A DNA stretch of 63,761 nt. It comes from an uncultured Bacilli bacterium (GTDB taxonomy: Bacteria > Bacillota_I > Bacilli_A > RF39 > UBA660). Under the pieces are notes generated by a model. It was given only the letters and a program-made list of their open reading frames with translations. It had not been told where the DNA came from and made no database searches. A program made the position numbers and the translations under genes. The stretch covers positions 1 to 63,761 of the forward strand of contig CAKOIY010000002.1 of assembly GCA_934087515.1 (NCBI GenBank), written 5' to 3'. Positions 34,200 through 56,806 of the stretch are shown here, one piece after another; position 1 is the stretch's first letter; the number at the start of each line of letters is the position of its first letter.

Positions 34200-34228
34200 T
34201 TGAAAAATTTTATGAATAATAGTATTAT
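34200..34228 (+). promoter_or_regulatory. Putative promoter of surface-protein family member 2
   Basis: TTGAAA-17 nt-TATTAT, followed by AATACTAAGGAG SD, 7 nt before ATG 34263. Confidence 0.5.
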
Positions 34229-34262
34229 ATTAATTGTAGAAAAATACTAAGGAGTGATAAGT

Positions 34263-37200
34263 ATGCTTAAGAACGAAGAAAATTTCACTAACGAACATTC
34301 GTTCGGGGGGGGGGTATTTAAATAACACTAATAACAAAAGAAATAAGTTAAAGTTTGTAACTATTATTCTTGTTTTTTTACTTATTGTTATAGGATTTAG
34401 TTTTGCTGTTTTTAATTATACTTTTTTTGGAAATGCTAGTGTTATTACTGCTAAGGATGTTGAACTTAGATTTTTGGAGTCAAATTCGGAAGTAATTGCT
34501 ATTAATAATGGTTTACCTATGACGGATGAGGATGGTATGAACCAAGATAAAACTGGTAATGTGTTTGATTTTGAAGTTAGGTCTAAGGTGGGATATGATT
34601 CAGATATAAAGTATGATTTGGTTTTAGAAAAGTTAGATGTTGATGCTGGTTTAGGTCAAGTAAGTGATAGTGATGTTAAGGTATATATTGAAGATTTTAA
34701 TGGTAATACGGTGTTAGAGCCTACTAGGGTTAGTGATCTTAAAAACTATAATTTGATAGAAAAGACTAATCATCATAGTGCTAATAAATCTATAATAAGT
34801 AATAAGTATAGATTAAAGGTTTGGCTTGATAAGAATTATGATATTTTTACTGGTAAGGAGATGCAGTATAAGTTTAAGATTGGTGTAAAAGTGGAACAAA
34901 AAAATCAGGATTTGAATAAGCAATATACAATAATATATAATTCTAATGGTGGTACTGGTTCTATGGAGAATACTGTTTTTAAGGTTGGGTCTCAAGGTAA
35001 GCTTTCTAAGAATGTTTTTATTAAGACGGGTTATGATTTTATAGGGTGGAGTACTAAAAAAGGATCTAGTTCTGTAAAGTATGATGATGAGTCTGTTATT
35101 AGTGATGTATCTTCTTTTTATGATGGTAAGGTTAAATTATATGCAGTATGGAAAGTTAGTATTTATAATGTTAAAGTTAATGTGGTTAATGGTAAGTTGT
35201 CTGGTGAAAGTGAGAAACAGGTTAATTATAATGAAAGTGTAAAATTTGATGGAGTAAGTGCTAGTACTGGTTATGATAGGCCTTCTATTAGTTGTACAAA
35301 TGGTCAAAGTGCAGTTATAAATGGTAATGTAATTACAACAGGTAAGATTACAAAAGATACAGTATGTACAGTAACTTATAAGGCTAACGAACTTAAGTTT
35401 GATAATCAAACTGTTGATAGGGATTATAGTGATAATGTTCAAAGTATTAATTTGACAGGTGCTAGTAATGGAACTGGTTCTTATACTTATCAAATAGTGT
35501 CTGGTAATAGTAATAATTATTTTAGTATTAATGGACTTGCTTTGTCTATAAAAGCTGGTACTTCAGCTGGTGTATACACTTTAACTGTAAGGGCTATTGA
35601 TACTAAATCTAATATGACAAAAGATATAAATGTATCTATTACTATTAATAGAATATCTCCGGCGATAAAATCAGAAGATAAAACAGTTGATTATACAGGA
35701 AGTAGGATAGAGTATGTAGCTACAAGTAATTCAAGTGGTGGGTTTATTTATGAATATTATAATGATGTTGGTTGTGTTAGTTCTAATAAACTAGCAGATA
35801 ATCCTATTAATGCTGGTTTATATAGTGTTAAAGTAAAACAAGTGGCAAGTGGTAATTATACAAGTGGCGAAAAATGTTCTAGTTTAACAATAAATAAAAT
35901 TAATAATACAGTAGTGATTAATGGAAATAGTCTAACATATACAGGCGGTTCACAAAAGTTAGTTAGAGTATCTTCTAATCAGGGAGATGTATATTATAGT
36001 GTTGGTACTGAACTTACAAAGAGCAATTATTCAACAAGTGGTAGTACTTTAATACCAGAAGAAACAAATGCTGGTACATATAAGGTTTATTATTATGTGA
36101 TTGGTAATAATAATTATAATGCTAAGTCTGGTAGTGTTGATGTAGTAATTGCTAAATCAAATACTTCTACTACGCTTGTTTCTAAGGCTACTACTGTTTA
36201 TACTGGTTCTTCTGTAAGTTCTAATACTGCTACTTCTAAACTTAGTAGTAATAATAGTTTGCTTAGTGGTAGTTATACTTATGAGTATTATAATGGTTCT
36301 AGTTGTAGTGGTACTAAACTTAGTAATGTTCCTAAAAATAAAGGTACTTATAGTGTTAAAGCTATTTTGACTGGGACAAGTAATTATAATGGTTCTACTA
36401 GTGGCTGTGTTAATCATGTGATTTCTGCTAAGGATTTGACAATAATTGCTAGAGATCAGACAATTAATCAAGGAGATAGGATTTTGACTTCTACAAGTAA
36501 TGTTTCTGTTTCAGGATTAGTTGGTTATGATAGTTTAACTAGTATTATTTTAACACCTAGTACTAATGCTGTAACTACTAGTGGAACTATAACGCCAAGT
36601 GGAGCTAAAATTGTTGATTCTGATGGAAATGATGTAACTAGTAATTATAATATTTCTTATAAGAATGGTGTATTGGTTATTAATGGAATTAAATATACTG
36701 TTTCTTTGAAGAAGGGTACTGGTGTAGATAAGCTTTCTGCTGATTATGTTACTTGTACAACATCTGGAACAAGTTCTAGTTGTGCTATTAAGTTGCCTAC
36801 TATTACTAGTTCTTCTACATATGGTCCTGGCTTTTTTGGGACAAGTTCATCAACAATTGGATCTTTAAGTCCTGGTGATACTATAACTGTAAGTTCTAAT
36901 AAAACTTATTATGCTTTGGCAAAGAAAATGTCAATTAGTTTTGTTACTGAGAATGGTTCAGAGGTTAATTCTACTTATGGGTGGTCTAATGAAAAGAATG
37001 TTATTGCTACTTATTCTTATAGATGTGGTGTAAATGGTGTTACATGTACTTTTGATTCTAGTGAAGAAGGAGGAATGACTGATAAAATAGTATCTGAGAC
37101 TTTAAAAAATACTGATACATATAGTAATAGGTTTACTCATAAAGGTATTGTTAATGCTTCCATGACTTTTAATGGGTCTACTGTAAATAATAGTATTTCT

Positions 37201-38013
37201 GTAGTTAAGGTTGGTTATGCGGCGACAACTCTTTTGAATAAGGGTGTTGTTACTTCTGGTTCTGGTTTATATCAAGATGCATATGAGGGTACTGGAGGAG
37301 TTAGATTTATTTATAGAGGATCTGGCCCTAATAATTATTTTAAAGTTGGTTCAGATAGTGTTGTGTGGAGAATAGTTGCAATTGAGCCTGATGGAACGTT
37401 AAAGATAGTTAGAAATGAAAACTATACAAGTGCTGGGACGATAGCTTGGGGTTCTGTTAGTAATTTTGCTGGTTCTGGTTTTGCTACATCAGGTGAGGCT
37501 TTTAATCAAAAACTTTATAAGGATGTACCTGGTGGTGGTAATCCTAAATATACGCAAGTTTATCATATGGTTGCTAATAAAAATTGGCCGTGTGGAACTA
37601 TTCCTACTGCTACTCCTGGAAATTCTATGGCGACTACTATTGCTCAGGAACGTAATACTAGTACATGTAATGTTTTGGCTGATGGTAGTGGTTCTTCAAT
37701 AGGATTATTGTCAATAAGTGATTTTCTAAGAGCTAGTTCTAATTCTACTTGTACTTCTATGGCTGCTTCAAGAAAAAGTACTTCTAATTGTAATAATAAC
37801 TGGCTTACTAGATCTTCAGATTCTCTTATACCAACAATGAATGCTTCTTCTGATCAATCTAATTATGTTGTATGGAAAAATGAAAATAATATGTCTGGTG
37901 TTGGAAGAACTACTAAGCAATATCCTAAGTATGCAGCTTATTATCAAGGAACTACTGATCTTTTAAGTGGTTCTGGAACTTTATCTAGTCCGTATTTATT
38001 TAGAGGTTATTAG
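34263..38013 (+). CDS. Surface-protein family member 2, frameshifted at a G10 tract (phase-OFF as sequenced); about 1249 aa if the tract were G9 or G12
   Basis: ATG 34263 with SD. G10 at 34305-34314 leads to a stop at 34323 in the start frame. The +1 frame is open from 34261 to 38013 and encodes the TM helix (FVTIILVFLLIVIGF) upstream of the ORF-track start at 34474. Contains the shared N-domain, a Listeria-Bacteroides repeat, Ig/MBG-like repeats and a C-terminal domain of unknown type. Confidence 0.8.
34305..34314 (+). repeat. Poly-G (G10) homopolymer inside the 5' coding region
   Basis: Counted directly: gttc-gggggggggg-tattt. The flank CATTCGTTC is identical to that of the tract at 62598. 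Confidence 0.95.
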
Positions 38014-38022
38014 GAGGAATAT

Positions 38023-38451
38023 ATGAAAGATAAAAAGATTTTGATTATGGTAATTATTTTTGTTTTTGTTGGTATTTGTATTTTTGCTGGATTTAGGATA
38101 TTTGATAGAAACCTTGATGCTTTACCTAAGAATAAAGTTATTAAAAATACTAATTCTGGTGTTATAGAAAATAAAGTGGTGAAGGGAATTGAGTTTTCTG
38201 AAGTTTCTTTAAATTCTGAAAATGGAAATGCTTTGTATAAAGGGAAAATTACTAATAAAACTAGTGATTCTATTTATATTAGAAGTATAGAAATTGTTGT
38301 TAAGAATAGTTATGGCCTTGAGATAGTTAGTTTAAATTGTAATGTTGGACGTAAGATAGGTGTTAATGAAAGTACTAATATTGAAGCTATGACTACTATG
38401 GATTTACCGAATGATGTAGCGTTTTCTTTGGAATATATTATTAATAAATAA
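38023..38451 (+). CDS. Small membrane-anchored protein downstream of family member 2
   Basis: AGGAGG SD, 9 nt after the preceding stop. One TM helix followed by a ~110-aa extracellular domain. Confidence 0.6.
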   Translation: MKDKKILIMVIIFVFVGICIFAGFRIFDRNLDALPKNKVIKNTNSGVIENKVVKGIEFSEVSLNSENGNALYKGKITNKTSDSIYIRSIEIVVKNSYGLEIVSLNCNVGRKIGVNESTNIEAMTTMDLPNDVAFSLEYIINK

Positions 38452-44294: not shown

Positions 44295-44468
44295 GCATAG
44301 GGAATGGAGGTTTCTGTTCTTTGTGGAGATAATATGAGGATAGAATGTCATCGTCTATCGCGGACTATTTGTCTTAAGTGTAGGAAATTTTAGCGATTTC
44401 TGATGAGATGTTGGATGTGATGCCCAACCTTATTATCTTAGGCCTACCTGAATTGGTGGGCTTTTTTT
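44295..44468 (+). ncRNA. Orphan structured RNA or leader (~175 nt), class unknown
   Basis: Lies between a consensus promoter and a strong terminator. Locally GC-enriched (cgtctatcgcggact, gatgcccaacc, ggcctacc). Hairpins: GATAGA/TCTATC (44339-59) and GAAAT/ATTTC (44384-400). Possible long-range pairing of TTGGCAT (44292-98) with ATGCCCAA (44420-27). Confidence 0.5.
44441..44468 (+). terminator. Intrinsic terminator ending the orphan RNA
   Basis: GCCTACC-tgaatt-GGTGGGC (7 bp including one G-U) followed by T7. Confidence 0.8.
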
Positions 44469-49442: not shown

Positions 49443-52031
49443 GTGTCAAAGAATATAAAAATATTTATTGGATTAATGTTATTTACACTTATTGGTCTTT
49501 TTGGAATGGGTAATGTAAGTGCTATTACGCTTGCTCATGAAAGATGTCCAGAGTCATATGTTAAGACTACTAGCACTTATACAGATTATGCAGATTTAAA
49601 TTCTGTAAAAGGGACTAAAGCTAATGGATATAAAGATGGTAAGGCTTATAGAGTTGATTTAGATAAAAAACCTTGGTATGTACATACTTCACTTACAATG
49701 TTTGCTGCTGAAGGGCATACTATTTATTGTACTGAACATGGTGTTGTTTATGTAAATGCTAAAAATAGTCCTTCATTTGTTTCAGCTTCTGGGAATGTTG
49801 ATAATAATATACTTGCTAGGGTGCTTGCTTATGGATATAATGATAATTCTAATAGTGTTTCTTGTTCGGCAAGTAGGGTTGCTACTCAAATGTTAGTTCA
49901 TTTTGCTGAAAAGGAAATAGCAGATGGTACTACTGGTTGGAGATCACTTACTGCTAGTCAAATGACTGGAAGTTTATTTGGTGGTAGTGGGGCTTCAAGT
50001 ATTGCATCTGAAGTTGTTAGAATTAGATCTTTGGTTTTAGATCATGATAAAATACCTAGTTTTGCTTTTAAAACTGCAGAAGCTGCTAATAATGATCCTA
50101 ATAAGATGGAACTTAAGTATAGTGAAACTAATCGTAATTTCTCTAATAGTAAGTCTGATACAAATGGTGTATTTTCTACTTATACACTTGGTACTAATCC
50201 TACTAGTGTTACAGCTACTAAGAGTGGTAATACTTTAACTATTACATCTAAAGATGATAGTGTTACAACTCCAATTAGTATGTCTAAAGTGTTTAAGAGC
50301 GGTGGTTATTATCAACGTAATGGTGAGTTCCAAAATATGGCTTATATAAAACCTACTACTAAGACTGTTACTGCTTATACTGGTTATAAATATGAAAAGA
50401 TTGGTAAGGGAACAGTTAAGATTCATAAAATTGATAAATATACTGGTAAGAATATGAAAGGTGCTTCTTTTGGTATTTATAGTGATGCTGATTGTACTAA
50501 GAAGGCTGTTGATTATTTAGGAAGAGAACTTCCTGAAAAGAAATCTGATAAGAATGGTATTATTGCTTGGGATAATTTATATTATCCACTTGAACTTGGT
50601 CAATCAAGAACATATTATGTAAAAGAAACTAAGACTATTGAAGGCTATGCACTTGATAATGAACAACTTGATAAACTTAAGGCTAAAGGAACTTGTATTC
50701 CTGTACAAGTAACTGCTAGTGAAAAGGATACAGATGATACTACAACTGATGATAAGGGAACTGCTCCTAATTCTGTTGCTCCTCAAAAAGCTGAATCCAC
50801 TACAAAAGAAATTGAAGATAAAGAAGTAGTTGTTCAAGCAGTATATAATATACCTTATGGTAATGTTACTATTTTAAAACAAGATGTTGATACTGGTAAA
50901 GTTATTCCGGGAGTTGAATTTAAACTTCTTAAGAATAATACTAAGAAAGAACCTGCTACTGATATGAATGGCAATGTTGTTAAAAATGCTATTACTGATG
51001 AAAATGGTATTGCTGAATTTGAAAATATACCTTATGGTGATTATATTTTAGTAGAGGTTAAGGCTAATAGTTGGTATAAAATTTTGGAAGAACCAATTGA
51101 ATTTACTTTAAATAAGGATAATGATGCTTTAAAATATGAAGCTCAAGGTACTGAAGCTTTACCTAGTACTGATTCTAAAGATAATACTAAACAAGATACA
51201 GCTAAGGATACTACAACTGATAAGAATGCTTCATCAACTACTAATAGTAGTACAACAACTGATAATAAGACTACTACTGATAAGGTGAAGGATATTTTAA
51301 TACCTTTGGCTAAGTATCGTTTAGGTGATCCTACTAATGATGGTAAGATTAATCAAGATGATATGAAGGTAATTGAAGATATTATTGCTAAGAATATTGA
51401 AGCTACTAGTTTACAATTTTATGCTTCTGATTTAAATCTTGACAAGAATGTTGATCAAACTGATAAGGATTTAATGCAAAAGTATTTAGATGGAGATAAG
51501 ACTGCTATTGCTAATGCACTTAAAGAATATGAAATTCCTGGACAAATTCAAAAGAGGGTTACTCGTGTTGTTACTAACAAGGCTTTGGATATGAAAATTA
51601 GTAAAGTTGCTATTACTAATGAAAAGGAACTTCCTGGTGCTAAAATAGTTGTTAAAAATGCTAAGGGAGAAGTATTTATTAAGTTTACTTCAACAAGTAA
51701 AGTAAAAGAATTTGCAATTCCAATTGGAGATTATACTTTAACTGAAACTGTTGCTCCTAAAGGTTATCAAACTTTGAAAACTGAAGTTAAGTTTAGAGTT
51801 TTATCTAATGGTAATATTAAATTAGTTAGTGCTGATTCTAATATGTATAAGATTGTTAAATCTAAAGAAAAAGATGATACTGATGCTGATCATTTAAAGA
51901 TTTATAATCAATTGAAGAAAATTAGTGTACCTAATACTGGTAGTGTTATTGCTATATCTACTATAGTTGGAGGACTTCTTCTAATTGGTGGAGGTAGTTA
52001 CGTAATTTATAGAAAGTATAAAACAAATTAA
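49443..52031 (+). CDS. Sortase-anchored adhesin: candidate thioester domain + SpaA/Cna-B-type domains + dockerin-like pair + VPNTG sorting signal
   Basis: Signal peptide. IYCTEHG (Cys at 49728) and VATQML (Gln at 49887). Prealbumin-like KxD..TG..(L/M).GA.F repeats. DPTNDGKINQDD / DLNLDKNVDQTD. C-terminal VPNTG + hydrophobic helix + RKYK. Confidence 0.75.
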   Translation: MSKNIKIFIGLMLFTLIGLFGMGNVSAITLAHERCPESYVKTTSTYTDYADLNSVKGTKANGYKDGKAYRVDLDKKPWYVHTSLTMFAAEGHTIYCTEHGVVYVNAKNSPSFVSASGNVDNNILARVLAYGYNDNSNSVSCSASRVATQMLVHFAEKEIADGTTGWRSLTASQMTGSLFGGSGASSIASEVVRIRSLVLDHDKIPSFAFKTAEAANNDPNKMELKYSETNRNFSNSKSDTNGVFSTYTLGTNPTSVTATKSGNTLTITSKDDSVTTPISMSKVFKSGGYYQRNGEFQNMAYIKPTTKTVTAYTGYKYEKIGKGTVKIHKIDKYTGKNMKGASFGIYSDADCTKKAVDYLGRELPEKKSDKNGIIAWDNLYYPLELGQSRTYYVKETKTIEGYALDNEQLDKLKAKGTCIPVQVTASEKDTDDTTTDDKGTAPNSVAPQKAESTTKEIEDKEVVVQAVYNIPYGNVTILKQDVDTGKVIPGVEFKLLKNNTKKEPATDMNGNVVKNAITDENGIAEFENIPYGDYILVEVKANSWYKILEEPIEFTLNKDNDALKYEAQGTEALPSTDSKDNTKQDTAKDTTTDKNASSTTNSSTTTDNKTTTDKVKDILIPLAKYRLGDPTNDGKINQDDMKVIEDIIAKNIEATSLQFYASDLNLDKNVDQTDKDLMQKYLDGDKTAIANALKEYEIPGQIQKRVTRVVTNKALDMKISKVAITNEKELPGAKIVVKNAKGEVFIKFTSTSKVKEFAIPIGDYTLTETVAPKGYQTLKTEVKFRVLSNGNIKLVSADSNMYKIVKSKEKDDTDADHLKIYNQLKKISVPNTGSVIAISTIVGGLLLIGGGSYVIYRKYKTN

Positions 52032-54031: not shown

Positions 54032-56806
54032 ATGAAGAGAATGTTTTTTGTAGTCGCTTTGGCTATGATTGGTGGTTTTGTGTTTATAGGAGGTGTAAGT
54101 GCTGATTCTACTGTTTTATATGAAGATGGGACTTTTATTATAAATGAGCAGGATCAAGATAGGACTAGTAATACTGAGAGTCATGGTACTGTTACTAAGG
54201 AATATGAAGCTTTTGATGGTAATAATTATGTGTTTGATAATTCTTTAGTTTTATGGGATTCTGAAAAGGATAGTATAAAGCGTGTTGAAATAGCTCAAAA
54301 GATTAAACCTAAATCTATAATTAATTGGTTTAATTCTATGGCTAATGTTGAGTATATTGATTTTACTAATTTAGATACTTCAGATATTACTGATATGAAT
54401 CATTTGTTATATGAGAGTGCTACTAAGTCTTCTAGTTTAGAGCTTAAAAATATTGGGTCTTTGGATACATCTAAGGTTACTGATATGAGTTCTATATTTT
54501 CTGATATTAGAAATAGTAAAATATCTTTGAATTTGGATTTATCAAAATGGAACACATCAAGTGTAACTAATATGAGTTATATGTTTGGTGATAATTATTT
54601 AAAATCTTTAACTGTAAATGTTTTTGGATGGGATACTACTAATGTTACTGATATGAGTGGTATGTTTATTGGTGTTGATAATGATTATGATTATCCAGTT
54701 GTTATAGATGGTGATTTTGTAGTACCTAGTGGCTGTAATGTTGATTCTATGTTAACGTGGGCTGAGAATTTGTCTGGTAATTTTGTATTTAGTGGTGATT
54801 TTACTGGTAATATGTTTCAAAATGATGATACTGCTATAAATGATGATGCTAGGATTGGTTTATTTTCTACTTCTGATACATCTAAAGCTAAACTTGAAAG
54901 TCTTGTGATTGATTCTAGTAATCATATTTATGTTAATCCTTACAGAATTATTGCTGATTATGCTGAAGGAATTCTTGTAAATGATAAAGAATATGCTAAT
55001 AGTATTGCTCAAGCTGGTGATGTTATAAAGGTTGCTAGTGTTGATGGCTATATTATTAAGTCTATATCTGTTGTTAAGAGTGGTAATGATGAAGTTGTTT
55101 CATTTGATTATGATAATGATACATTTGTTATGCCAGATAGTGATGTAAATATTGATGTTACGTATGTTGTTAAGCCTAGTGTTGGTAAGGTAATACTTAA
55201 TAAACCTCAACTTATTGATTATAACAATATAAAAGTTTCTTGGAGTGAGGTAGAGGGTGCTGATGGTTATAGGGTTTCTTTACATGATTCTACTCATATT
55301 GGTCCTATTGCTTCTTATGATATAAAAGATTTATCTTATGAGTTTAATGATTTAAATGAAAATTATTATTCTTATACAATTTATGTTAGGGCTTATAAAA
55401 ATGTTGATGTTGATGGGCATACTAAGGTTTTTGAAGGGCAAAGTGCAAATACAGCATCTTTAAGAACTTCTAAAGAACTTGCTGCTCCTTCGGTTAGTGC
55501 TAAACTTATTGGTATTGCTGATGTAAAACTTGAATGGAATTCTATTGATGATGCTGAAGGATATAATATTTATTATAAGAAAAGTTCTAGTGATGAATAT
55601 AAGTTTTTACATGAAACTATGAATACATATTATGAAGTTAAAGGGCTTAGTAATTCAGCTGAATATGATTTTAAAGTAGTACCTGTTACAAAATTTATTA
55701 ATCTTTCTGCTGATTGGTATTTGTCATCTGGATATGATTCAGATTATGTATTTGAAAGTAAATTATTTGGTATTTCTAGTATAACTACTTTAGCTAATCC
55801 AGATGTTGGTTCTGTTACTATAGAGGATGTTTCTTATAATAGTAAGAAAATTACATGGAAAAGTGATTCTTCTTTGAAATATAAGATATATTATAAATCT
55901 ATTAATGATGAAGTGTATACTTATGTTGATACTGTTAGTGATGGCGAATATGTATTTAAAAATTTACCTTCTTCGTATAAATATGATGTTAAGATTGTTC
56001 CTTATATTGTAGTTGATGGTAATGAATTCGAGGGATTAAATAATATTTTTGAGATTGAATCTTATGGTTATGATATTGGAAATGCTGAGGTAAGTGGTAT
56101 TTATAATAAAACTTATAATGGTAAATATCAAACTCAAAATATTAGATTAGTACTTGATGGTAAGACCTTAGTGAGTGGTAGAGATTATGAAGTTAGTTAT
56201 AAAAATAATAGAAATGCTGGAGTTGCTACTGTTATAATTGTTGGAAAGGGTAGTTATTCTGGAAAAATGGCTTGGACTTTTAAAATTAAACCTTTAAATA
56301 TTAAGAGTGTTCAGTTATCTAATTATGTTTATTCTTATAATGGTTATTTGAAGACTCCGATTGTTACAGTAAAAAATGGTTATGGTAATGTATTAGCTAA
56401 AGACATTAATTATTCTTTGGTATATCAAACTGGTAGAAAGAATGTTGGCACTTATAGAGTTACTGTCAAAGGAAAAGGTAATTATACTGGTACAATTGTT
56501 AAGACTTTTAAGATAATTCCTATTTCTACTAATATAACTAAGATTTCAAGGGGAAAAACAAGTATTAAAGTTAATTATAATAAACGTATTTATCAAGTAA
56601 GTGGTTATCAAATTCGTGTTTCATCGTCTTCTAAGATGACTAATGCTAGGTATGTTAAGATTGGTAGTTATAAAACTAATAATAAGACTATTAAAAGTTT
56701 AAAAAGACATAAGAGATATTATGTACAAATTAGAACTTATAAAAAGACAACAAGTGGTACATATTATTCTAGTTGGAGTTCTATTAGAAGTGTTGTAACT
56801 TTATAG
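54032..56806 (+). CDS. Secreted DUF285 ('26-residue repeat')/FN3 multi-domain surface protein
   Basis: Signal peptide. DUF285 repeats (LDTSKVTDMSSIF, WNTSSVTNMSYMF, WDTTNVTDMSGMF). Several FN3-like modules. The C-terminal MBG-like + FN3 module is shared with 21099..22673. Confidence 0.8.
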   Translation: MKRMFFVVALAMIGGFVFIGGVSADSTVLYEDGTFIINEQDQDRTSNTESHGTVTKEYEAFDGNNYVFDNSLVLWDSEKDSIKRVEIAQKIKPKSIINWFNSMANVEYIDFTNLDTSDITDMNHLLYESATKSSSLELKNIGSLDTSKVTDMSSIFSDIRNSKISLNLDLSKWNTSSVTNMSYMFGDNYLKSLTVNVFGWDTTNVTDMSGMFIGVDNDYDYPVVIDGDFVVPSGCNVDSMLTWAENLSGNFVFSGDFTGNMFQNDDTAINDDARIGLFSTSDTSKAKLESLVIDSSNHIYVNPYRIIADYAEGILVNDKEYANSIAQAGDVIKVASVDGYIIKSISVVKSGNDEVVSFDYDNDTFVMPDSDVNIDVTYVVKPSVGKVILNKPQLIDYNNIKVSWSEVEGADGYRVSLHDSTHIGPIASYDIKDLSYEFNDLNENYYSYTIYVRAYKNVDVDGHTKVFEGQSANTASLRTSKELAAPSVSAKLIGIADVKLEWNSIDDAEGYNIYYKKSSSDEYKFLHETMNTYYEVKGLSNSAEYDFKVVPVTKFINLSADWYLSSGYDSDYVFESKLFGISSITTLANPDVGSVTIEDVSYNSKKITWKSDSSLKYKIYYKSINDEVYTYVDTVSDGEYVFKNLPSSYKYDVKIVPYIVVDGNEFEGLNNIFEIESYGYDIGNAEVSGIYNKTYNGKYQTQNIRLVLDGKTLVSGRDYEVSYKNNRNAGVATVIIVGKGSYSGKMAWTFKIKPLNIKSVQLSNYVYSYNGYLKTPIVTVKNGYGNVLAKDINYSLVYQTGRKNVGTYRVTVKGKGNYTGTIVKTFKIIPISTNITKISRGKTSIKVNYNKRIYQVSGYQIRVSSSSKMTNARYVKIGSYKTNNKTIKSLKRHKRYYVQIRTYKKTTSGTYYSSWSSIRSVVTL

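Follow-up and report, generated by a model that had tools for sequence, protein, structure and literature searches.

Poly-G tracts in a surface-protein gene family of uncultured gut Bacilli as probable slipped-strand phase switches

The opa genes of Neisseria form a multigene family of surface proteins in which CTCTT repeats lie within the region coding for the signal peptide, and each copy, transcribed from its own promoter, switches its reading frame independently, leading to combinatorial expression. The 5' ends of these genes are conserved, while their exposed parts are variable and recombining. Here we analyze genes of a comparable arrangement in a stretch of 63,761 nucleotides (the window) from contig CAKOIY010000002.1 of an uncultured Bacilli bacterium of the RF39 lineage. 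Two genes of the window, named A and C, carry a run of ten G residues (G10) shortly after their start codons and are out of frame as sequenced; a paralog, gene B, lacks the run and is in frame. In the gene family to which they belong, the run has a fixed position and a variable length, and slipped-strand phase variation of these poly-G genes is probably the correct explanation. As in opa, a family of paralogous surface proteins carries a repeat in the leader-coding region of each copy, behind its own promoter and within a conserved 5' end. Unlike opa, the repeat is a homopolymer and not a pentamer, the predicted products combine a transmembrane (TM) anchor with a beta-sandwich and repeats instead of forming an outer-membrane beta-barrel, and the organisms belong to another phylum.

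In function the opa genes come closest, in sequence type the phasome of Campylobacter jejuni, and in ecology and layout the G-tracts in pilus genes of Bifidobacterium breve. The poly-G/C contingency loci of C. jejuni amount to a phasome of about 29 tracts (PMC3401435, PMC4965091). Like C. jejuni, the bacteria studied here are host-associated, have a G+C content (GC) of about 30%, and possess many poly-G tracts within genes, 8-13 in length and with a sharp mode, which would act as translational ON/OFF switches by gain or loss of one G and which are otherwise avoided in the genome. In contrast to C. jejuni, where the tracts occur in unrelated glycosyltransferase, capsule, flagellar and restriction genes, a single paralogous surface family with a shared 5' cassette is concerned here, the carrier is an uncultured commensal of the Gram-positive-type Bacilli, the modal length is G10 and not G9, and the system is known from assembled sequences.

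In the sortase-pilus genes bbr_0113 and bbr_1889 of B. breve, an open reading frame (ORF) for the signal peptide is followed by G10-12 and then by the rest of the gene (PMC9187656). For these genes recoding was suspected first (PMC5009743), and replication slippage was shown later (Penno et al. 2022, PMC9187656). The likeness to our locus is considerable, as in a gut commensal a run of the G10-12 class lies between the start with the export signal and the remainder of the gene, the reference sequence is OFF, and the same question of recoding versus slippage arises. However, the genes described here do not encode pilins, their anchor is an N-terminal TM helix, the tract precedes this anchor helix instead of following a cleaved signal peptide, the genome is low-GC rather than high-GC, and at least 12 loci occur per genome as compared to two. 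The LPXTG motif is absent from genes A and B, and their neighbours are housekeeping genes with no sortase cluster. Gene A therefore resembles the B. breve switch in its working and falls outside the sortase-pilus group.

In low-GC Gram-positive bacteria and Mollicutes, switches with poly-A in the 5' coding region are known for vaa of Mycoplasma hominis, p78 of Mycoplasma fermentans, swrA of Bacillus subtilis and inlA of Listeria monocytogenes (PMC2831843). These examples agree with the remark in the initial annotation that poly-G/C switches are little described in low-GC Firmicutes, for which poly-A and poly-TA switches are better described. In both cases a homopolymer in the first codons of a gene for a surface or behavioural trait permits a frame toggle by a single base. 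The described cases, however, are A7-A9 runs of an abundant base at single loci, whereas here G10 occurs over a whole gene family and consists of a rare base, so that it is far more clearly non-random. In literature searches, no poly-G phase variation was found to be described for RF39-type or uncultured gut Bacilli. The proposed mechanism is the classical simple-sequence-repeat contingency switch; the lineage and the gene family are new. Genomes with many switches are known almost only from pathogens (Neisseria, Haemophilus, Campylobacter, Helicobacter), and a recent review regards it as an open question whether this restriction is real or maybe a database bias (PMC11868660). An uncultured gut Bacilli lineage of small genome size, in which each genome has 12 or more poly-G tracts confined to one surface family, bears on this pathogen-only view and, if the switching is real, commensals would vary their surface combinatorially as pathogens do.

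G10 tracts and the 5' cassette of genes A and C

Gene A starts with ATG at position 34263, which is followed by 14 codons (MLKNEENFTNEHSF), G10, three further codons (-GGG-VFK) and the stop codon TAA at 34323-34325. Directly 3' of the run, the +1 frame encodes YLNNTNNKRNKLK-FVTIILVFLLIVIGFSFAVF, corresponding to a basic tail and then a membrane helix (KRNKLK FVTIILVFLLIVIGF). In silico deletion of one G leads to an ORF of 1249 amino acids that includes the membrane anchor, with ...NEHSFGGGYLNNTNNK as the predicted junction peptide. When the +1 frame was inspected from 34261 onwards, no ATG, GTG or TTG was found ahead of the TTG at 34474, and so none before the TM helix. The initial annotation had placed the ATG, the TAA and the run 14 codons into the gene, had called the gene OFF as sequenced, had described a +1 frame open from 34261 to 38013 with basic tail and TM helix, had noted that the ORF start at TTG 34474 lies after the TM segment, and had predicted that removal of one G joins the ATG to the long ORF; re-reading of the sequence confirmed all of this. 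Gene callers systematically mis-annotate the genes of this family as N-terminally truncated and anchorless.

From its sequence, it is a reasonable inference that the gene A product is a membrane-anchored surface protein. An AlphaFold (AF2) model of residues 1-216 (predicted local distance difference test, pLDDT, of 77) predicts a disordered segment (1-22), a helix (23-55) and a beta-sandwich (60-213), and Pfam detected one Flg_new (Listeria-Bacteroides repeat) domain. A PDB sequence search with gene A returned nothing useful. A TasA/camelysin-like, SipW-dependent secreted protein was also considered and rejected, as there was no NCBIfam/Pfam match and a fold search gave only a weak, generic beta-sandwich with a template modelling score (TM-score) of ≤0.3.

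The window has a G+C content of 28.5%, and on the strand analyzed C, with 5801 occurrences as compared to 12372 of G, is the rarest base, and not G, which had initially been called a minority base. Exactly two G/C runs of six or more occur in the window, both of them G10, and runs of 6-9 are missing altogether. For a first-order Markov model of the window, the predicted numbers of G/C runs are about 0.01 (length ≥10) and 4.3 (length ≥6). Compared with this expectation, long runs are far over-represented and intermediate runs are missing. The G10 of gene A had been taken for the longest G/C run by far, but it is not unique, since an identical G10 is present at 62598-62607 in the paralogous gene C.

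Gene C is out of frame by the same amount as gene A; loss of one base or gain of two restores its frame, and a G9 version would run without a stop to the window end. The tracts of both genes lie in the common flank CATTCGTTC-G10-T. Exactly at the position of the run, gene B has the nine bases AAAAATAAA (KNK). The two proteins A and B share 37% identity over their first ~215 residues only; thus the colinearity with the paralog at 26355 that had been proposed for gene A holds for this N-terminal part, and the C-terminal parts differ. Genes A, B and C share a cassette that consists of a TTGAAA-17-TA(G/A)AAT promoter-like site, a ribosome-binding site CTAAGGAGG, the ATG and a short leader. The site keeps the same distance as in gene A, both in genes B and C and, by alignment, in 16 related cassettes, with TTGAAA-17-TA(G/A)AAT as its sequence. 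The leader comprises 13-14 codons before the G run, which lies within the predicted cytoplasmic tail, just before the membrane anchor.

A hairpin with a T-run overlaps the -35 box of the cassette at 62490-62514 and 26287-26311 (CTGCTTgaaaAAGTGG-T7; GCTACTTgaaaAAGTAGC-T6 in relatives) and looks like a terminator of upstream transcription fused to the promoter. In a terminator scan this hairpin and T-run was not called, having too few G-C pairs, and it is therefore reported as an observation only.

According to the mechanism that we propose, genes A (34263-38013) and C (62559 to the window end) would belong to a family of membrane-anchored surface proteins of low-GC gut Bacilli, each gene having its own 5' cassette of promoter, ribosome-binding site, ATG, leader of 13-14 codons and poly-G before the anchor. 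During replication, the G run would gain or lose bases by slipped-strand mispairing. Lengths of 9, 12 or 6 G would join the start codon to anchor and ectodomain (ON), and with 10 or 11 G translation would stop after about 20 codons, with nothing exportable being made (OFF). If each gene switches alone, a population would arise with many combinations of surface proteins, as a form of bet-hedging in the face of antibodies, phages or niche change. Genes A and C would be OFF in the consensus as sequenced and the tract-less paralog B constitutively in frame. The length changes are presumably frequent and reversible, and the proteins of the family are presumably exposed at the surface.

Tract length and reading phase in related genomes

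A protein-based scan of species-representative genomes led to 39 loci with a total of 246 kb (individual loci and alleles are referred to by L numbers), which originate from gut metagenome-assembled genomes (MAGs) of uncultured 'Bacilli', 'Mycoplasma sp.' and 'Tenericutes' with about 28% G+C. All G/C runs of six or more in these 246 kb, with the exception of one G7, are located within the leader of a family gene, and all of them have G on the coding strand. The leaders differ by species (MKKLFKSTNKCSS-, MKHEHNFAM-, MQTKIRY-), and in every case the run immediately precedes the basic tail and helix. Some paralogs share these leaders and lack a tract (gene B, L013, L023/L028/L029). The lineage is present in Hadza human gut metagenomes. 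In ERZ857965, a metagenome assembly of the same species in which gene A is 98% identical, the cassette occurs on at least 12 genes. Among these paralogs the cassette (-110 to -1, i.e., the 110 nt before the tract) is 84% identical, as compared to 50-59% for the upstream flank and the ectodomain, and the 12 tracts are distributed over G9 (one), G10 (nine) and G11 (two).

At this same position, the family has tracts of G6, G9, G10, G11 and G13, and all three phases are encountered within one genome as well as across species. Eight cases are in frame (L001 with G6, L002/L003 with G10, L011 with G10, L014 with G13, L044 with G9, L056 with G9 and L094 with G11), 24-26 of about 39 family tracts, nearly all of them G10, have one G too many, and 3-5 have one G too few (L030 with G11, L064 with G11 twice, and two doubtful ones). 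One MAG harbors ON paralogs (L011 and L014) together with OFF paralogs (L016 and L038), and the predicted proteins of in-frame relatives display GG, GGG or GGGG at the position of the tract. Slipped-strand contingency loci are characterized by just this combination of a fixed tract position with a length that varies through the in-frame and both out-of-frame phases. Further traits of such loci are found as well. The tracts are longer than composition would predict and fall into the hypermutable range (7-8 or more G/C), their 5' coding position is one at which a change of one base toggles between full-length and truncated products, ON and OFF lengths occur among strains and paralogs at the level of the family, and the ORF is kept functional despite an OFF consensus. 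As far as assembled sequences can tell, the anatomy of the cassette and its conservation, the non-random nature of the tracts and the variation of length and phase among paralogs, strains and species are established.

Whatever the frame, G10 is the commonest length; L002 and L011 have it in frame, and elsewhere it is out of frame. In C. jejuni, poly-G tracts have a modal length of G9, short ones being subject mainly to insertions and long ones mainly to deletions (PMC3401435). The predominance of G10 irrespective of frame would fit such a mutational mode and not a fixed frameshift signal, and G10 presumably is the mutational mode in this family.

A fixed signal would be expected for programmed recoding at G10, in which RNA polymerase drops one G, maybe aided by a hairpin of the nascent RNA 5' of the run, or +1 slippage of the ribosome takes place on GGG-G. 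Under this reading, out-of-frame templates would give a low, set level of expression for each of a dozen or more genes with the cassette. The excess of tracts with the same one extra G is in agreement with such recoding, as is the fact that strains with about 5% synonymous divergence retain an out-of-frame G10 consensus at gene A together with an open downstream ORF. Also, an inverted repeat, CGAAC-attc-GTTCG, adjoins the gene A run, and a precedent exists in an IS630 element of Roseiflexus, where a hairpin beside a slippage motif leads to transcripts that are one base shorter (PMC5009743). Nevertheless, we consider recoding unlikely, because in-frame members (G6, G9, G10, G11, G13) and members of the opposite phase exist, so that the family has no constant frame relation, and because G10 is also found where it is in frame. 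The G run is not a standard slippery motif. The 5-bp inverted repeat at gene A makes a weak hairpin that is imperfect in most paralogs and shows no covariation, and the fold containing it is not significant overall (z = -1.0). RNA structures 3' of the tract that might act as frameshift stimulators were not significant either (z = -1.0 and -1.8) and were not conserved between genes A and C. In transcription, the slippage measured at homopolymers consists mainly of insertions at A/T runs, and deletions occur rarely at runs (PMC5574713). The analogous case of B. breve turned out to be replication slippage (PMC9187656).

The cassette provides, as leader plus Gn, an easily recognized sequence handle by which ON and OFF states could be tracked in metagenomic reads across hosts and time.

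Some tracts of different structure were encountered during the scan. In another species, a composite T7G6 tract (L016:3012-3024; proteins P0012, P0069 and P0070; ...CSFFFGGGP...) is present, in which both homopolymers could slip. Interrupted tracts at the same leader position (GGGGAGGAG in L018:2896-2910 and AGGGGGTAG near 669 in L092) belong to out-of-frame genes and look like decayed or locked-OFF copies. When contigs were scanned with an 18-nt pattern, about 15 matches in GC-rich contigs were discarded as chance. In a contig of 33% GC from another organism, G11 occurs in frame inside an N6-adenine methyltransferase-like gene with an NPPY motif (L054:3122-3132, minus strand); its flank (AAACATTCGTTC-G11-TAT) is identical to that of the window, although the reading frame differs, and a second gene of this contig has G10 at codon 7 (L054:7579-7588, minus strand). 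Given the result of the 18-nt pattern scan, the L054 tract may be due to chance, or it may belong to a phase-variable methylase.

Alleles at the gene A and gene C loci

Eleven alleles of gene A were obtained from independent samples and form two clades that are about 5% apart at synonymous sites. The long frame is intact in six of them (window, L068, L077-L079 and L081), which represent both clades. Between the window and L068 there are 116 substitutions in gene A, corresponding to a synonymous divergence (dS) of 0.051 and a ratio of nonsynonymous to synonymous divergence (dN/dS) of 0.53, with no stop and no insertion or deletion (indel). Over all 11 alleles, with at least 200 mutations, two nonsense mutations were observed as compared to 8.7 expected under neutrality (P = 0.008), only two indels occurred, and dN/dS was about 0.5. 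By this count of mutations, the gene A ORF has been held open beyond what neutral decay allows. A cluster of 19 substitutions at 37044-37305 sets the window apart from strains that are otherwise 99.8% identical; in gene A as a whole, 9 codon changes are nonsynonymous and 8 are synonymous.

The initial annotation had asked for tract length to be compared in related genomes and metagenomes. The variability that it envisaged is found in the family as a whole, but the gene A locus itself is close to invariant without strictly being so. Its consensus is G10 in nine of the 11 alleles (window, L068, L077-L081, L096 and L097), the in-frame G6 accounts for the other two (L001 and L095, the latter at 1.8x coverage), and G9 or G12 never is the consensus among the 11. 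Similarly, the gene C tract is G10 in four of four alleles. Private disabling lesions are present in four gene A alleles (CAA->TAA in L001 and in L096, an additional A causing a frameshift in L097, and TAA at codon 11 together with loss of a T after the run in L080), which indicates that gene A is being lost in some strains; L001, the well-supported in-frame allele, is one of the disabled ones. In the family, the excess of tracts with one G too many over the other OFF phase (24-26 versus 3-5) is not predicted by unbiased drift. In addition, all tract lengths are those of assembled consensus sequences, and assemblers may partly homogenise tract length over a repeated cassette. Each of these points weighs against slipped-strand phase variation, and the phase switch proposed in the initial annotation is supported at the level of the family and not proven at the gene A locus. 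The near-invariance of gene A presumably reflects a population mode at G10, which a high mutation rate would restore in every host, so that only a 'locked' short tract such as G6 could become a different consensus.

The private lesions in four of 11 alleles, the lack of any G9 allele at this locus and dN/dS values of 0.5-0.8 might also be understood if gene A were a plain pseudogene, killed by an ancestral frameshift of one additional G and now decaying, with a run that has no switching role. This explanation appears quite unlikely, since the 1232-codon frame is intact in the six alleles from two clades, nonsense mutations and indels are as scarce as described above, and G/C runs of 6-9 are absent elsewhere in the window. 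Furthermore, independent accidents cannot account for the same tract in the same place of 12 or more paralogs and of several species. Taken together, gene A has the look of a gene still in use and frequently selected against, a common situation among variable surface antigens, rather than that of an old pseudogene.

Homopolymer lengths are error-prone, and Penno et al. have warned that G-tract lengths in databases can differ from those of the real population (PMC9187656). The true length might therefore be G9, as the initial annotation had considered, with both genes simply being intact. Such a sequencing or assembly error is very improbable, however, as G10 was obtained at gene A in nine independent assemblies, for which several assemblers had been used, and at gene C in four, and as other paralogs were given G9 or G11 in these very assemblies. 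Moreover, although dozens of A/T runs of 7-8 occur in the window, including 25 T8 and 6 A8, its housekeeping genes match their profiles end to end.

The gene C alleles were reached via a small ORF of 52 amino acids upstream of the gene, an exact-protein look-up of pyruvate kinase having given no record. This ORF (62331-62489; weak HTH_Rpn_C match) is located directly 5' of the gene C cassette. Relatives of it (49-83% identity) are found 5' of the family members L059, L061 and L064 and, in other species, near family genes (L014, L030). In two further samples (L089:290-620 and L091:430-662), the small ORF and the cassette promoter are joined to other sequence by deletions or rearrangements at the gene C locus; in L091, the sequence joined is the 3' end of a gene of B/C type.

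Coordinates of features and further observations in the window

Table 1. Features of genes A, B and C and of their surroundings (positions in the window)
Feature	Position	Strand	Remarks
Gene A, promoter-like site	34200..34228	+	TTGAAA-17-TATTAT; 10/12 consensus matches
Gene A, ribosome-binding site	34249..34254	+	AAGGAG; 8 nt 5' of ATG 34263
Gene A, leader frame as sequenced	34263..34325	+	20 codons (MLKNEENFTNEHSFGGGVFK) + TAA; putative OFF product
Gene A, inverted repeat adjoining G10	34292..34305	+	CGAAC-attc-GTTCG; weaker (cAAAC..GTTcg) in other paralogs
Gene A, G10 homopolymer	34305..34314	+	exactly 10 G; proposed slippage switch; in-frame lengths G9, G12, G6
Gene A, body in +1 frame	34315..38013	+	1232 codons + stop; frame open from 34261; order: basic tail, TM helix (34354-34413), beta-sandwich domain, Flg_new repeat, long repeat-rich ectodomain
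Gene A, TTG used as start by mechanical ORF calling	34474..34476	+	3' of TM helix; no ribosome-binding site
Gene A, putative recombination/gene-conversion patch	37044..37305	+	holds 19 of 22 differences between window and L077 over 10.4 kb
Gene for small TM-anchored protein	38023..38451	+	142 amino acids; 9 nt 3' of gene A; kept in all related loci
Gene B, tract-less in-frame paralog	26292..28301	+	648 amino acids; ATG 26355; same promoter, ribosome-binding site and leader as A and C
Gene C, promoter-like site	62495..62523	+	TTGAAA-17-TAGAAT; first hexamer overlaps hairpin + T-run (CTGCTTgaaaAAGTGG-T7)
Gene C, leader frame as sequenced	62559..62630	+	MKKIQSQNSKHSFGGGVILQPIK + TAA (62628-62630); putative OFF product
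Gene C, second G10 tract	62598..62607	+	13 codons after ATG 62559 (MKKIQSQNSKHSF-GGG)
Gene C, body in +1 frame	62608..63761 (window end)	+	TM helix, then domain common to C-terminal part of gene B

The gene for the 142-amino-acid TM protein is probably co-transcribed with gene A. A search against Rfam detected no RNA family at the gene A or gene C locus and, elsewhere in the window, only one tRNA and the skipping-rope small RNA motif, the latter at 44329-44436 with 41.9 bits (gathering threshold 36.7). Two large genes for putative surface proteins without a G tract are present at 49443-52031 and 54032-56806, one of the products having three SpaA prealbumin-like domains and the other DUF285 and fn3 domains. 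The GC skew of the window is strong and uniform, (G-C)/(G+C) amounting to 0.29-0.42 in every 8-kb block, and most genes are located on the plus strand.

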